Program-made: the position numbers and the translations under genes | DNA from: Patescibacteria group bacterium | Lineage (GTDB): Bacteria > Patescibacteriota > Patescibacteriia > XYB2-FULL-38-15 | Length of the DNA: 64,000 nt | Assembly: GCA_041737355.1 (NCBI GenBank) | Contig: JBGSRW010000007.1 | Span: 10,556-74,555, forward strand | Reading direction: 5' to 3' | Notes under the pieces: model-generated | Told to the model about the DNA's origin: nothing | Seen by the model: the letters and a program-made list of their open reading frames with translations, nothing else | The model's database searches: none | Part shown: positions 16,340 through 21,580 of the stretch, in pieces | How positions within the stretch are numbered: position 1 is the first letter of the stretch | How the letters are laid out: each line of letters opens with the position of its first letter

Positions 16340-16828
16340 ATGGCAAAAAAATTATTCTTAGTTTCTCTCGTCGCGATTTTTTTCTTTCTTGTCGCCTCTC
16401 CTGTTCTCGCTTCCTGGCCGGCTACCCCGCTTTTGCCGCCCTGCGCAACCGGCGCCCAACTGGGAACTGCTGAATCTCCCCGATGTGGTTTTAACGATTT
16501 TATTCTACTTGGCGTCAATCTGACTAAATTAATTCTAAGTATTGTCGGATCATTAGCCCTGCTTTTCTTTGTCTACGGCGGAGTAATGTTTTTGATCGCC
16601 GGAGGAAAATCGGAAGCGGTGACCAAAGGAAAAACAATTATCACAAATGCCGTGATTGGTTTGGCCATTGTGCTTGGCGCCTGGGTTATTGTTAATTTTG
16701 CCATTGCCGCCCTCACCGGAACTTCGGTCGGAAGCGTAAAACTTTTCGGCACGCAAAATTGGTGGATAACTCCCGGCGCGGAAAAAACAACCCCGCCTGA
16801 AGGCGAAACGCCAACTCCTACACCATAA
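16340..16828 (+). CDS. pilin-like protein 1 (TrbC/VirB2-like 'T4SS pilin' family), Thr/Pro tail
   Basis: Signal peptide followed by the conserved module 'LILSIVGSLALLFFVYGGVMFLIAGGKSEAVTKGKTIITNAVIGLAIVLGAWVIVNF'. C-terminal tail 'TPPEGETPTPTP'. Confidence 0.55.
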   Translation: MAKKLFLVSLVAIFFFLVASPVLASWPATPLLPPCATGAQLGTAESPRCGFNDFILLGVNLTKLILSIVGSLALLFFVYGGVMFLIAGGKSEAVTKGKTIITNAVIGLAIVLGAWVIVNFAIAALTGTSVGSVKLFGTQNWWITPGAEKTTPPEGETPTPTP

Positions 16829-16835
16829 AAATTTT

Positions 16836-17711
16836 ATGAAAAATCCTCAAAAAAAATCTTCTTTACTGTTCAGAGTTTCTTTTATTTCTCTTTTATTGTT
16901 TACAAGTTTTTATCAAAATGCTTCAGCCGCAAGAACGGCATTAGAAATTTACTCTGACGTCGAAGCTGTAGTAACACAAATCGAAAACGAACATAGCGCA
17001 GCGCTTTCGGGTGGTGAAGCAACAAGGCGAGACGGCGAAGCTGCTTCCGCGGCGGCACAAGAAGCGGCAGATCAGGCGAGAGAAGCTCAAAATTCAGGAA
17101 ATCTCGAGGCACTACAAAGGGCTAATAGTATCCTCGCTGCCGCGAACGATATGCTCACTAAATCTAGCGCTGTTATAGAGGTTGCAACCAGAAGAATAGC
17201 CGCAGCCTCTGCCGCCGTTCCGGCAGCCTCTGCCGCCGTTGATGCAATTACCATCGCTATGCGGGACGAAACTCCGGCAAACATAGCTGCTGCCGAAACT
17301 GCACTCACGGCGGCTCGAGCCGCGCTAGCCACAGCTGAAACGGCTTTTGATGCAATAGCGGCGCCATATAATCTTTATCTGGACGCAAAGGCAACTTACG
17401 AAAGATTGAAAGGATCACCGGTTGGCGGCTCCGTGACTAGCGGTACCGAATCAGTCGAATTTGATTCGCCAATCGGCAAACTTTCCCCCGCCCAGCTAAT
17501 AGGCAAGGCGATTAAAGCCGTTTTGGGAATTATCGGCGCGATTGCTCTCCTGATGTTTGTCTATGGCGGCTTGATGTGGATGCTTTCCGGCGGCTCGGCG
17601 GACAAAATAAAAAAAGCCCAGGGAGTATTAATTTGGGCAACCATTGGTCTTGCCGTAATTTTTGCAAGTTATACTCTAGTAGACTTTGTCCTACAACAAT
17701 TTGGAGTTTAA
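16836..17711 (+). CDS. pilin-like protein 2 with Ala-rich repetitive N-terminal domain
   Basis: C-terminal module 'LIGKAIKAVLGIIGAIALLMFVYGGLMWMLSGGSADKIKKAQGVLIWATIGLAVIFASYTLVDF'. About 150 aa Ala-rich helical region containing a 21 nt tandem repeat. Confidence 0.55.
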   Translation: MKNPQKKSSLLFRVSFISLLLFTSFYQNASAARTALEIYSDVEAVVTQIENEHSAALSGGEATRRDGEAASAAAQEAADQAREAQNSGNLEALQRANSILAAANDMLTKSSAVIEVATRRIAAASAAVPAASAAVDAITIAMRDETPANIAAAETALTAARAALATAETAFDAIAAPYNLYLDAKATYERLKGSPVGGSVTSGTESVEFDSPIGKLSPAQLIGKAIKAVLGIIGAIALLMFVYGGLMWMLSGGSADKIKKAQGVLIWATIGLAVIFASYTLVDFVLQQFGV

Positions 17712-17714
17712 AAA

Positions 17715-18125
17715 ATGAAAAAATATACAAAAAATTTTGCTGACGCGACGCTGATTGCCCTTTTTTCTCTTTTGTTGATTGGCTCTTTCGGACACATCGC
17801 TTTTGGGCAAACAACTCCGGCCGTAAATCTTCCGACCGGGGAGGCGCCGCCCATGATTAACCTGGAAAATCCGCTCGGGGGTTCAACCAGCGAAGTTTCC
17901 GTCCCCCAAATTATTGGTAATATTATTAAGACAATTCTTACTGTCGTTGGCGCTCTGGCCTTAGCCATGTTTATTTACGGCGGATTTACCTGGCTTACTT
18001 CTGGCGGAAGTTCCGAAAAAATTACAAAAGGCAAAGATATTCTTATTTGGGCGACAATTGGTCTGGCCGTTATCTTTTCAAGCTATACTTTGGTCGATTT
18101 TTTGTTAAAGGCTTTTGGATTATAA
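17715..18125 (+). CDS. pilin-like protein 3
   Basis: Module 'IIGNIIKTILTVVGALALAMFIYGGFTWLTSGGSSEKITKGKDILIWATIGLAVIFSSYTLVDF'. Confidence 0.55.
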   Translation: MKKYTKNFADATLIALFSLLLIGSFGHIAFGQTTPAVNLPTGEAPPMINLENPLGGSTSEVSVPQIIGNIIKTILTVVGALALAMFIYGGFTWLTSGGSSEKITKGKDILIWATIGLAVIFSSYTLVDFLLKAFGL

Positions 18126-18126
18126 A

Positions 18127-19493: not shown

Positions 19494-19862
19494 ATGTTTC
19501 CAAACTTTAAAAAAATTTCTAAACTTTTTTACGGCTTAACACTGCTTGCAATCCTTGCTGCGCCGGCTTTTGTTTCGGCTGTGGATACCGGCCTTGAAAA
19601 TTCGGCTGGGGCGGCCGGCATTGAAAAATTTGATATTGCCACGAAGATCGGAGATATCGTCTCAACCGTTCTGGGTTTTGTCGGGGTTCTCTTTCTAATT
19701 TTAATGATCTATGGCGGCCTTATGTGGATGACGGCCGGCGGAAAAGAAGAACAGCTGGGTAAGGCTAAAAAAACTATCACTGCCGCCGTAGTCGGAATTA
19801 TTATCGTCTTTTCCGCTTACGCCATAACTTTTTTCGTCACCGAAACTTTACTCGGAAGATGA
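19494..19862 (+). CDS. pilin-like protein 6
   Basis: Start placed at the ATG after the hairpin (MFPNFKK...). Module 'IGDIVSTVLGFVGVLFLILMIYGGLMWMTAGGKEEQLGKAKKTITAAVVGIIIVFSAYAITFF'. Confidence 0.5.
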   Translation: MFPNFKKISKLFYGLTLLAILAAPAFVSAVDTGLENSAGAAGIEKFDIATKIGDIVSTVLGFVGVLFLILMIYGGLMWMTAGGKEEQLGKAKKTITAAVVGIIIVFSAYAITFFVTETLLGR

Positions 19863-20683
19863 AACTCCAATATAAAATTTTAAGTTTTTTTCTTTTAACC
19901 CTGGCGGGTTTTTTGTTTCTCAACACCGACTTCGCCGCGGCGGGAAGATGCGAATGCTGTTATAGCAGGATTGGGGAAGCCGCTACCGAATCCGCCTGCT
20001 CGTCAATGTGCCGTGATTTCGGGGACTGGAAATATTTCGCGAGCGGTGATCCCGCGACTACCGGCCGAACAAACTCGACCGCCTGCCTGCCTCCCGAAGG
20101 AATGTGTTTTTGCTGCTGGGCAGACGCGCCAGAATCAGGAACGATGCTCCAGGCGGCCTGTATCGGCGCCTGCACTGACAAAGGCAGCGTGAAATCTTTT
20201 CGCTCAACTGTTACTTCTCTTAATTTAACCCGCGATTGCCTGCCCCGCCCAGTAGACGCCATTGGCTGCACCGGCGACGCCGATTGCCCGACCGGGCAAG
20301 TGTGCGGCGACATAGAAGACGGCGTGGGTTTTTGTTCGTCTCCATCTGAACCAACCTCCGGGGAAACTTCTAATCCGGAACTCGATGCGCCGACCGGAGT
20401 TTTAAGCGGCGGCCTGCAAAAAGCCGCGGGCAAAGCCGGGTTCCAATCTACTTCGGTAGAAAATATCGTAAGTAACATTGTTTATGTAATTCTAAGTTTT
20501 GTTGGTGTAATCTTTTTGGCACTGACAATTTATGCGGGTTTTATTTGGATGACCGCCGGCGGCAATACGGAAGATGTGGAAAAAGCCAAAAAAATCCTTG
20601 AACGGGCCGCTGTTGGTCTCGTCGTCGTCCTTGCCGCTTACGCAATTACCTATTTTGTAACCACCCAAATTATCACTCCATAA
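19859..20683 (+). CDS. pilin-like protein 7 with Cys-rich N-terminal ectodomain
   Basis: ATGA start/stop overlap with gene 6. About 150 aa with 22 Cys ('RCECCYS', 'CFCCW', 'CTGDADCPTGQVCG'). Module 'IVSNIVYVILSFVGVIFLALTIYAGFIWMTAGGNTEDVEKAKKILERAAVGLVVVLAAYAITYF'. Confidence 0.55.
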   Translation: MKLQYKILSFFLLTLAGFLFLNTDFAAAGRCECCYSRIGEAATESACSSMCRDFGDWKYFASGDPATTGRTNSTACLPPEGMCFCCWADAPESGTMLQAACIGACTDKGSVKSFRSTVTSLNLTRDCLPRPVDAIGCTGDADCPTGQVCGDIEDGVGFCSSPSEPTSGETSNPELDAPTGVLSGGLQKAAGKAGFQSTSVENIVSNIVYVILSFVGVIFLALTIYAGFIWMTAGGNTEDVEKAKKILERAAVGLVVVLAAYAITYFVTTQIITP

Positions 20684-20704
20684 AATATCTAAAATAACAA
20701 ATCT

Positions 20705-21139
20705 ATGAAGTCACTCCAAAAAATTTTTATCATCTCTTGCCTAATGTGTTCCCTGGCCGCCTTATCCCTGCCTTTGCTTTCTTCGGCAGCCGGAACGGAT
20801 GACGCACTGGAAAAATTAAAAACCGTCGGCGGAGCGGCTTATGGAACGGAGGAACCGCGGAGTCTCCCTGAAATTGCGGGAAGCGTTATAAAAACAGTCC
20901 TTACTATTCTCGGCGTCCTTGCGGCCCTTTTGATTATTTACAGCGGCTATGTTTGGATGACAGCCCGCGGCAAGGAAGAAAGAGTAACCAAGGCAAAGGA
21001 CACTTTGGAGGCGGCAATTATCGGTCTGATTATTATTATGGCCGCCTACGCGATTACCTATTTCGTGGTTAACGCCATCTCGGGCGCCACGGGGGGTGCT
21101 CCTTCGGGATCTACCACCCCTCCACCCACTACTCCGTAA
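20705..21139 (+). CDS. pilin-like protein 8, Thr/Pro tail
   Basis: Module 'IAGSVIKTVLTILGVLAALLIIYSGYVWMTARGKEERVTKAKDTLEAAIIGLIIIMAAYAITYF'. Tail 'GGAPSGSTTPPPTTP'. Confidence 0.55.
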   Translation: MKSLQKIFIISCLMCSLAALSLPLLSSAAGTDDALEKLKTVGGAAYGTEEPRSLPEIAGSVIKTVLTILGVLAALLIIYSGYVWMTARGKEERVTKAKDTLEAAIIGLIIIMAAYAITYFVVNAISGATGGAPSGSTTPPPTTP

Positions 21140-21163
21140 GCTTTCTAAACCTAATTTAAAAAT

Positions 21164-21580
21164 ATGTCCCTAACACCAAAAAAAATATTCTCATTTTTTC
21201 TCCTTGCTGCTCTTTGTTTCTCTGTTCTTACCATTTTTTCCCCGGCAACAACTTTTGCCCAGATCAATGAATTAAAAAATTTTGGCAACGAGGCCTACGG
21301 AAACTCCTCGGCCACCTACCAAGAACAAGGTCCGGTCTTCATCGCCGGAAAAATTATCAACGCGGCTCTTGGGGTTGTTGGCATTATCATGGTTATTCTT
21401 TTTATTTACGGCGGCTATGTTTGGATGACAGCTGGCGGCAATGAAGAAAAGGTTAAAAAGGCAACGCAAATTCTTTCCCGAGCGGTTATTGGCCTGATTA
21501 TTATCTTATTGGCCTATAGCATTTCCTACTTTGTTATGCAGCAGCTCTTAAGGTCAACCGGAGCGCCGATGGTGCCATAA
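21164..21580 (+). CDS. pilin-like protein 9
   Basis: Module 'IAGKIINAALGVVGIIMVILFIYGGYVWMTAGGNEEKVKKATQILSRAVIGLIIILLAYSISYF'. Confidence 0.55.
   Translation: MSLTPKKIFSFFLLAALCFSVLTIFSPATTFAQINELKNFGNEAYGNSSATYQEQGPVFIAGKIINAALGVVGIIMVILFIYGGYVWMTAGGNEEKVKKATQILSRAVIGLIIILLAYSISYFVMQQLLRSTGAPMVP

Follow-up and report, generated by a model that had tools for sequence, protein, structure and literature searches.

A nine-gene array of VirB2-like pilins in a Patescibacteria chromosome, with ordered subunit classes, a candidate major subunit and localised turnover of head domains

The stretch analysed here, which we call the window, comprises 64,000 nucleotides of a Patescibacteria group bacterium (contig JBGSRW010000007.1, positions 10,556 to 74,555 of the forward strand) and contains nine tandem genes for pilin-like proteins, p1 to p9. 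The nine form a Patescibacteria VirB2-like pilin array of an already described kind. New here are its internal class architecture, a candidate major subunit (p5), a turnover of head domains that is localised to a few genes, and a partnership with genes for an extracellular solute-binding protein (SBP) and a sugar enzyme, without virB4. Taking the evidence together, we consider it somewhat probable that this VirB2-like array supplies a filament in which p5 would form the shaft and the head-bearing proteins would be minor subunits, that a type IV secretion system (T4SS) would assemble this filament in trans, and that swapping of heads would retune its specificity.

The features of the array are given below, with the class of each product (A to D, defined further on), its length in amino acids (aa) and its scores against protein family profiles. 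MFE stands for minimum free energy.

16340-21580, + strand: nine pilin-like genes, p1-p9, from the listing of open reading frames (ORFs) and their translation
16340..16828, + strand: p1, class A, 162 aa; PF18895 39.7 bits
16836..17711, + strand: p2, class B, 291 aa; PF18895 37.4 bits
17715..18125, + strand: p3, class B, 136 aa, short head; PF18895 47.1 bits, TrbC 22 bits
18127..19011, + strand: p4, class B, 294 aa, Cys-rich head of ~190 aa with two subdomains
19068..19436, + strand: p5, class C, 122 aa, the most conserved member; PF18895 37.9 bits, NF045849 E 3.4e-9
19494..19862, + strand: p6, class D, 122 aa; PF18895 30.2 bits, TrbC 22.6 bits
19859..20683, + strand: p7, class D module with a Cys-rich N-terminal head of ~170 aa, ATGA overlap with p6; PF18895 38.5 bits
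20705..21139, + strand: p8, class D, 144 aa, Pro/Thr/Ser-rich C-terminal tail; PF18895 40.7 bits
21164..21580, + strand: p9, class D, 138 aa; PF18895 40.7 bits
21603-21632, + strand: intrinsic terminator-like hairpin followed by a U-run at the array end; MFE -16.7 kcal/mol, z -3.7

The intergenic gaps, in order from p1 to p9, are 7, 3, 1, 56, 57, -4 (the ATGA overlap), 21 and 24 nucleotides (nt). We took the ATG at 18127 as the start of p4, whose longest ORF begins with the TTG at 18115, and the ATG at 19494 as the start of p6, giving 122 aa (138 aa from the alternative GTG at 19446). An earlier note on this DNA, made without database searches, had described nine consecutive same-strand ORFs, spaced 2-57 bp apart with one ATGA overlap and closed by a strong terminator. 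Number, strand, overlap and terminator were all confirmed, whereas the lower bound of the spacing had to be corrected, the gaps being 1-57 nt.

Regarding the proteins, each product carries a basic n-region, a hydrophobic stretch, a small-x-small site, a head and a C-terminal two-helix module of ~75 aa. The likely signal-peptidase sites are, from p1 to p9, VLA/S, ASA/A, AFG/Q, VNA/E, VAA/Q, VSA/V, AAA/G, SAA/G and TFA/Q. When aligned, the nine modules are almost gapless, with pairwise identities of 27-80% (the highest value, 80%, is that of p3 with p4) and with G18, Y27, G29, G37, K44 and G55 invariant. AlphaFold2 (AF2) models place a helical hairpin at the module, at residues 221-291 of p4 and 218-288 of p2. 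The features expected of a T4SS pilin, namely a cleavable signal peptide, two transmembrane (TM) helices and a short basic loop, are thus present in all nine, with the lysine of the loop invariant. From this layout the loop is predicted to be intracellular and both termini outside, with the head and any C-terminal tail exposed at the surface. That the heads would point outward follows from the cleavable signal peptide, the two transmembrane helices and the many cysteines, and disulfide-rich heads fit an extracytoplasmic location.

The earlier note had already seen the common C-terminal module in every ORF, which stood, although at ~75 rather than ~70 aa; its consensus motif for the module fits most copies, with p1 (YGGVMFLIAGG) and p2 (MWMLSGG) deviating from it. 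Measured from the signal-peptidase site to the module, the heads span about 17-190 aa and not ~20 to ~170 aa. Their lack of relationship between paralogs held in an all-against-all BLAST, except for residues 1-42 of p3 and p4, at the signal-peptide end (E 2e-4), and the count of two Cys-rich heads (p4 and p7) and one Ala-rich head (p2, predicted all-helical) was right. The p2 head has ~185 aa, and in its AF2 model four long helices (residues 33-193, with a predicted local distance difference test score of 84-94) are joined by a disordered linker to the hairpin. This head was unmatched in three syntenic relatives and in 78 related loci (both described below), and in a search of 5.8 billion proteins it matched only P0122 (98%) and part of P0128. 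For p4 and p7, database searches returned a handful of full-length orthologs with 43-84% identity, and the metagenome orthologs of p7 are 84, 60, 57 and 48% identical to it. The p1 protein combines a short head with two cysteines and the motif SWPATPLLPPC with a Pro/Thr-rich C-terminal tail.

All nine proteins exceed the gathering score of the Pfam family PF18895 (T4SS_pilin), with 30.2-47.1 bits against 26.6, each of them at E <=5e-7 and with >80% coverage of the 71-position profile. Hence, the array is not a chance pattern. The threshold of 27.9 bits of Pfam PF04956 (TrbC/VirB2) was not reached by any of them, the best scores being those of p6 (22.6 bits) and p3 (22.0 bits), at E ~1e-4 and over the same module. 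Homologs from other genomes score 25.3-27.7 bits against this profile (the highest, P0037, lies at 27.7 bits for a cut-off of 27.9), and several close homologs carry a precomputed PF04956 match. Although formal membership in PF04956 is lacking, remote homology of the window proteins to TrbC/VirB2 is likely at the sequence level. A third profile, NCBIfam NF045849, has a cut-off of 40 bits that the window proteins do not attain; p5 comes closest (36.2 bits, E 3.4e-9), p2-p4 and p6-p9 score 16-32 bits, and p1 gave no match. The assignment to a TrbC/VirB2-like T4SS pilin family, which the earlier note had made, is therefore borne out by PF18895 for all nine, the other two profiles being consistent with it but below threshold. 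A profile built from the nine window modules matches 69,122 clusters (50% identity) at E <=1e-3, so the family is very large. Homologs of p4 are named 'pilin [Patescibacteria group bacterium]', and relatives of p5 lie on metagenome-assembled genomes (MAGs) titled Falkowbacteria, Uhrbacteria, Parcubacteria or Patescibacteria group.

Pilin arrays of Patescibacteria have been published before, in three papers (PMC12102498, PMC10633639 and PMC12857230). In a survey of 3,035 Patescibacteria genomes based on PF04956 and PF18895, Quinonero-Coronel et al. 2025 counted 441 VirB2-like arrays, which have 2-11 genes each and are spread over 383 assemblies; the mean within-array identity is ~25% (PMC12102498). 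The expansion of the family in Patescibacteria, also stated in the earlier note, is thus correct and the phenomenon is not new. Their definition asks for at least two genes matching PF18895 or PF04956 (i-E <0.001, coverage >50%), in tandem or one gene apart (PMC12102498), and the window array falls within it, with nine consecutive genes at the E-values (<=5e-7) and coverage (>80%) given above. In the same survey, VirB2-like pilins and VirB4 occurred together in 1,948 assemblies and a pilin gene lay near virB4 in only 1,135 (PMC12102498). Wang et al. 2023 describe a predicted pilin series inside an essential T4SS cluster of the cultured Saccharibacterium Southlakia epibionticum ML1, SEML1_0006-0019 (PMC10633639). 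Term searches of PMC12102498 gave no mention of head domains, Cys-rich ectodomains, solute-binding proteins or glycosyl genes; and, as far as these searches and passages of PMC10633639 show, a class order, a p5-type core gene with ribosome-binding site and hairpin, and head turnover are undescribed there.

We then compared the array with three syntenic contigs, L001 (OZ246416.1, a complete 886-kb chromosome), L083 and L084, which were reached through homologs of p4 and p7 and not through p5. They carry 9, 9 and 8 pilin genes, respectively, and share with the window the order EamA or bipA, NTP_transferase, SBP, array, two small minus-strand genes and rpoB. RpoB of L084 and L001 is 93.7% and 88.3% identical to that of the window, and the SBP is 87% identical in L084, 83% in L083 and 75% in L001. 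Six positions of the array are clear orthologs in the four genomes. The identity of p1 in the three relatives is 68-80%, and those of p6, p8 and p9 are 54-61%, 58-80% and 53-76%, respectively. In a region-by-region comparison of the window with L001, the module is better conserved than the head in each of the genes.

Most of the turnover takes place at a small number of positions. At position 2 the head differs in all four genomes, being Ala-rich, helical and ~185 aa long in the window and Cys-rich with ~100, 140 and 230 aa elsewhere. A Cys-rich head of ~240 aa on p3 was found in L083 only. The N-terminal Cys-rich head of p7 is present in the window and L083 (58%), in part in L084 (52%), and absent from L001; conversely, a C-terminal Cys-rich tail on p7 is found in L001, L083 and L084, the window copy being without it. 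L084, the closest relative, lacks gene 4; the p4 head is kept in L001 (38% identity) and in L083 (54%). The p4 gene call in L083 (L083:6089-6980) is shorter: it follows a 290-nt gap and begins midway through the head, giving 200 aa, and may represent a frameshifted or decaying copy. Head replacement at position 2 and gain or loss at positions 3 and 7 thus occur even at 94% RpoB identity. The proposal of a constant anchor carrying a variable head was right, although 'hypervariable ectodomains' is too wide a term, as the changes affect the heads at positions 2, 3 and 7 and gene 4 is missing from L084. Arrays identical in every copy, named beforehand as an argument against diversification, are not what the four syntenic genomes contain: their heads differ.

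In order to extend the comparison, we scanned species-representative genomes with p5 as bait and obtained 80 loci, 78 after removal of L001 duplicates, from MAGs titled Falkowbacteria, Uhrbacteria, Buchananbacteria or Parcubacteria/Patescibacteria group. Our own ORF calling and a hidden Markov model (HMM) of the module gave 465 module-bearing ORFs, each assigned to a class by its best BLAST match among the window paralogs, at 30-60% identity: A for p1, B for p2-4, C for p5 and D for p6-9. Arrays have mostly 6-7 genes, and up to 13. Among the 61 arrays with at least five genes, 54 follow the class order A? B* [C/D]+ and 32 the strict order A B+ C [C/D]+; a p1-type gene comes first in most related arrays. 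N-terminal extensions of at least 100 aa are found in 31/49 class A, 68/93 class B, 4/93 class C and 12/177 class D proteins. Most of the large heads (103/122) have at least six cysteines and only three are Ala-rich, while tails of 10-60 aa are P/T/S/G-rich in 56 cases out of 113. Some heads weakly match small disulfide-rich families (EB module, Dickkopf_N, which is above threshold in P0037, and spider toxin), in line with a local knottin-like Foldseek match. The conserved internal class order points to specialised roles rather than to a free repertoire.

This bears on whether the copies could be a repertoire for antigenic or phase variation, with a single pilin or a few alternatives in use at any one moment and with recombination between copies, as proposed for the VirB2 proteins of Bartonella and Anaplasma. 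The many divergent tandem paralogs and the heads that differ between relatives would suit such a system, and the analogy is raised in PMC12102498. However, the genes all point the same way, lie 1-57 nt apart with one stop/start overlap, and are probably co-transcribed; stable orthologs occupy most positions, and dozens of species share the class order. Nor did we find in the array DNA the substrates that conversion or inversion would need, there being no long near-identical repeats and no inverted repeats. Since, in addition, the module DNA of the paralogs is 60-75% identical, the copies are old, and nothing points to a switching mechanism. We regard such a repertoire as very improbable.

Within the ordered array, p5 is the best candidate for an abundant core or major subunit, because it is short, is conserved like RpoB (88-93% identity in L001, L083 and L084, against 88-94% for RpoB), has its own ribosome-binding site and is followed by a conserved 3' hairpin. 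The two expression signals are the following.

19052..19061, + strand: Shine-Dalgarno-like AAGGGGGTGA, 7 nt upstream of the p5 ATG, read from sequence
19448..19476, + strand: GC-rich 12-bp stem-loop just 3' of p5; MFE -25.6 kcal/mol, z -4.1

The other array genes have A/T-rich leaders. In the related loci, a Shine-Dalgarno-like motif at -20 to -4 precedes 65 of 110 class C genes (59%), compared with 4/53 in class A, 13/99 in class B and 15/188 in class D. The stem-loop has a counterpart in L001 (MFE -24.6, z -4.4) with one compensatory change, C-G to U-A. Across the 61 arrays, no other class is followed by gaps as long (median 38 nt) or as structured as those behind class C genes, of which 35/77 have an MFE of -15 or lower, versus 7/132 after class D genes. 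The post-p5 stem-loop is a candidate intra-operon attenuator or mRNA-stabilising hairpin.

VirB2 and TraA pilins of known systems are extracted from the membrane and polymerised by a VirB4-type machine. By analogy, the processed two-helix hairpins of the window proteins would collect in the membrane, from which a VirB4-type T4SS encoded elsewhere in the genome would extract and polymerise them into a surface filament, a step that we infer from VirB2/TraA homology. In such a filament p5 would be the bulk or shaft subunit, whereas proteins of the p1-p4 type and p7 would be minor subunits, with disulfide-rich or helical domains exposed on the shaft or at its tip. Their heads would contact the surface of the host cell, and head replacement between close relatives may retune host or ligand specificity. 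The window genome belongs to a Patescibacterium close to Falkowbacteria, a group assigned to class ABY1 by Quinonero-Coronel et al.; as Falkowbacteria genomes are tabulated with VirB4 'Yes', it is plausible that a T4SS acts in trans here.

The genes just upstream of the array, and a promoter-like sequence before them, are as follows.

~13970-13996, upstream of the NTP_transferase gene: promoter-like TTGCCT-15 nt-TGcTATAAT, a consensus match only, read from sequence
14044..14916, + strand: NTP_transferase, sugar-1-phosphate nucleotidylyltransferase-like; Pfam PF00483, E 4.5e-26
14921..16315, + strand: orphan sugar-type extracellular SBP; PF01547, PF13416

The NTP_transferase gene ends 4 nt before the SBP gene, which in turn ends 24 nt before p1. 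The array is probably co-transcribed with both, the NTP_transferase gene being the probable first gene of the transcription unit. As a promoter scan gave weak consensus matches only, this operon structure is deduced from the spacing. The best solved relatives of the SBP are sugar-binding SBPs (E 1e-14), and no gene for an ATP-binding cassette (ABC) permease or ATPase to go with it was found among the window ORFs scanned. In the survey, an SBP homolog lies directly 5' of the array in 53 of the 78 loci and an NTP_transferase homolog upstream in 32. Behind the array or beside it, 34 loci encode a membrane protein of ~540 aa and 21 a GT2 glycosyltransferase; the former has at least eight TM segments, a DPD motif near its N-terminus, no Pfam match and a GT-C-like appearance. 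Examples of these downstream genes are L014:9623-11176 and L005:7424-8158 / 8174-9790, and in other loci a DUF2079 protein takes the place of the ~540-aa protein. The GT-C-like and GT2 genes hint at an extracytoplasmic glycosylation linked to the pilins; neither is adjacent to the array in the window or in its three closest relatives.

Farther upstream, 6 kb before the operon, the window encodes at 5569-8273 a Wzx-type flippase (Polysacc_synt) and a protein of the Wzy_C/O-antigen-ligase family, and genes of these two kinds adjoin the NTP_transferase-SBP-array cassette in several relatives (L004, L017 and L074). The Wzy_C family includes pilin O-oligosaccharyltransferases.

One could argue from this neighbourhood that SBP, nucleotidyltransferase and pilin-like proteins work together in nutrient capture, for example in a tube or contact structure that imports and activates host sugars or, as a variant, that the sugar genes serve to glycosylate the Pro/Thr/Ser-rich tails. 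The recurrence of the SBP and NTP_transferase genes, the GT2 and GT-C-like genes after many arrays, the sugar-binding type of an SBP that has no transporter partners among the window ORFs scanned, the P/T/S/G-rich tails and the Wzx and Wzy_C genes would all agree with it. On the other hand, this evidence is one of gene neighbourhood, which could be plain chromosomal synteny in a small genome, and the GT2 and GT-C-like genes are not beside the array in the window and its closest relatives. To our knowledge there is no biochemical precedent for an SBP-pilin device that captures sugars, and we think this explanation improbable.

The survey also showed the module in other contexts. It is found above the PF18895 threshold at the N-terminus of proteins of 640-3,360 aa (L011:9947-16735, L071:9953-19927 and L038:6422-9064; further loci with such giant proteins are L013, L043, L075, L054, L073 and L048). 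Beyond the module these carry Ig-like (Big_5, Big_7, TIG, fn3), DUF4215 and Fib_succ_major domains, and by their domain content they appear adhesin-like, with the pilin module as a handle. Other single chains hold 2-16 tandem modules: P0142, P0147, P0151, P0208 and P0271, and also L074:7871 and L076:3827. P0142 (820 aa) has one signal peptide and eight modules joined by linkers of 30-40 aa, and P0151 (232 aa) has two modules; gene-calling read-through was rejected for both, as each is continuous with a single signal peptide. We know of no covalently concatenated 'pilins' in classical T4SSs. In L068:2400-11400 (Buchananbacteria), by our gene calls, SBP, five pilins and a c2 gene occur as a mirror-image duplication with identical product lengths in both arms; this inverted arrangement may be genuine or may stem from an assembly error.

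Several observations weigh against a p5-based filament built by a T4SS. T4SS pilins are expected to be encoded with VirB4, VirB6 and VirB3, and the window array does not stand in such company: as the earlier note had said of the window, no VirB4, VirB6 or VirD4 was found among the 40 non-pilin window ORFs scanned, which include all ORFs of at least 400 aa, and the search for VirB4 and VirD4 within 10 kb of the 78 arrays, among ORFs of at least 450 aa with a Walker A motif, gave none. The large Walker-A ORFs near the arrays were identified as a P-type ATPase, ClpB, IF-2, an ABC-F protein and surface proteins. A profile of 60 modules run against all PDB sequences found no solved pilin (matches to designed 'Pizza' repeat proteins were spurious), the large, mostly Cys-rich heads had no match in the PDB, and fold searches with the models yield nothing beyond generic helical hairpins. 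Chains of 2-16 fused modules, like heads of 170-190 aa, are hard to fit into a canonical VirB2 lattice. Reviews term a pilus role of PF18895 members only 'potential', and no member is known to form a pilus. The case for p5 as the major pilin, drawn from the sequence, consists of its conservation and its expression signals. Besides, p5 as bait biases the presence of class C in the 78 loci, and the class calls are made at 30-60% identity.

Given these observations, the module could be a membrane anchor or oligomerisation unit that builds no filament: the nine proteins would stay membrane-bound, maybe as a hetero-oligomer with one subunit per class, and display their heads independently of a T4SS. 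Besides the missing VirB4, in the window and within 10 kb of the 78 arrays, this would account for the neighbours (sugar SBP, nucleotidyltransferase, GT2 and GT-C-like membrane protein), for the same module at the N-terminus of adhesin-like proteins of 880-3,324 aa, for single chains with 2-16 modules such as the eight of P0142, and for a conserved gene order with a fairly constant array size of 6-9. Against it stand the homology to TrbC/VirB2 and to pilin-like proteins of integrative and conjugative elements (ICEs), the position of the Saccharimonadia pilin array inside an essential T4SS cluster, and the pilin genes near virB4 in 1,135/1,948 assemblies of the published survey (PMC12102498). 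The strong separate expression signals of p5 suggest an unequal stoichiometry, as expected of a polymer, and the fused modules keep all their linkers on the outer face, so that a filament is still compatible with them. We consider the anchor possible, though on balance doubtful. Pilus formation by the window array, with p5 as shaft, remains the reading that we prefer, and it is one that we infer by analogy.

A broader proposal would cover both outcomes. ABY1 genomes of the Falkowbacteria/Uhrbacteria type may have a surface module unlinked to a T4SS, made of a nucleotidyltransferase, an SBP and ordered A-B-C-D proteins, often with GT-C-like or GT2 genes, in which p5-type proteins would form a filament or platform and heads, fused chains and giant adhesins would plug in. 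We put it forward tentatively and think it unlikely in this full form. If true, the two-helix module would be a general 'plug-in' surface-display system that sets host specificity, and the SBP would work together with it, whether as lectin, as receptor or in capturing substrates.

The rest of the window is ordinary chromosome, with ruvB, bipA, rpoB, rpoC, yebC, ruvC, glycogen-type enzymes, a class A penicillin-binding protein, trigger factor and clpP. Genes dnaN and dnaA lie on the minus strand at 50206-52967, and the cumulative GC skew has its minimum at ~50-52 kb; hence, the replication origin is probably ~30 kb from the pilin array. This proximity accords with a published remark that patescibacterial T4SS genes tend to be origin-proximal. 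Directly 3' of the array, on the minus strand at 21698-22596, there is a 0.9-kb island of 64% GC in a genome of 45% GC, with a terminator-like hairpin beside it (21648-21675). It encodes two Gly/Pro/Tyr-rich, lipoprotein-like ORFs (lipobox-like LTFGC and AVSGC) without a Pfam match. A GC-rich pair also lies 3' of the array in L001 (62% GC) and L004 and, by position, in L083 and L084; since the two genes recur behind the array in relatives, we rejected an assembly chimera as the source of the island. Finally, a low-GC block (34-38%) at 33409-37190, with a MerR-fused C5 cytosine methyltransferase, an Eco47II-type restriction endonuclease and two ORFs without a family match, is probably an acquired restriction-modification island.

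Patescibacteria make up a large, mostly uncultured share of bacterial diversity, and many of the studied members live attached to a host. A T4SS with its pilin series is essential in the one species tested genetically, and the window locus adds testable handles: a candidate major subunit of the p5 type and a recurrent partnership with SBP and sugar genes instead of virB4. The head-bearing subunits, swapped between relatives at 94% RpoB identity, are candidate determinants of host specificity.

In comparison with the published Patescibacteria arrays, the window array shares the tandem PF18895/PF04956 genes, a size within 2-11, low identity between copies, and a chromosomal, origin-proximal location. 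The window and the 78 loci differ from them in not lying beside virB4 and in being preceded by an orphan sugar SBP and a nucleotidyltransferase. With VirB2, TrbC and TraA of F, RP4 and Ti, the window proteins have in common the signal peptide, the two hydrophobic helices, the short basic loop and a weak HMM similarity across the module. They depart from these pilins in their sub-threshold PF04956 scores, a host that is reported to be monoderm, heads of up to 190 aa, the tails of some copies and the missing adjacent T4SS; nothing in the window indicates enzymes for cyclisation or acetylation, and no solved homolog was detected.

Two further systems are close in other ways. Mbov_0395/MMCAP2_0565, a pilin-like conjugal transfer protein of Mollicutes ICEs (NF045849), aligns across the whole module, although the ICE protein is the product of a single gene in a conjugation module and the window scores are below the cut-off. 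The ancestry of the patescibacterial T4SS is reported to lie in monoderm MPF-FATA systems, with which the NF045849 similarity of p5 is consistent. The VirB2 paralogs of the Bartonella Trw system and of Anaplasma, an amplification cited as an analogy in PMC12102498, are likewise divergent tandem pilin copies and are thought to widen the interactions with host surfaces. There the copies belong to the T4SS locus or adjoin it, and their variation is that of a small pilin; the window array, by contrast, has entire domains gained or exchanged and keeps its class order.

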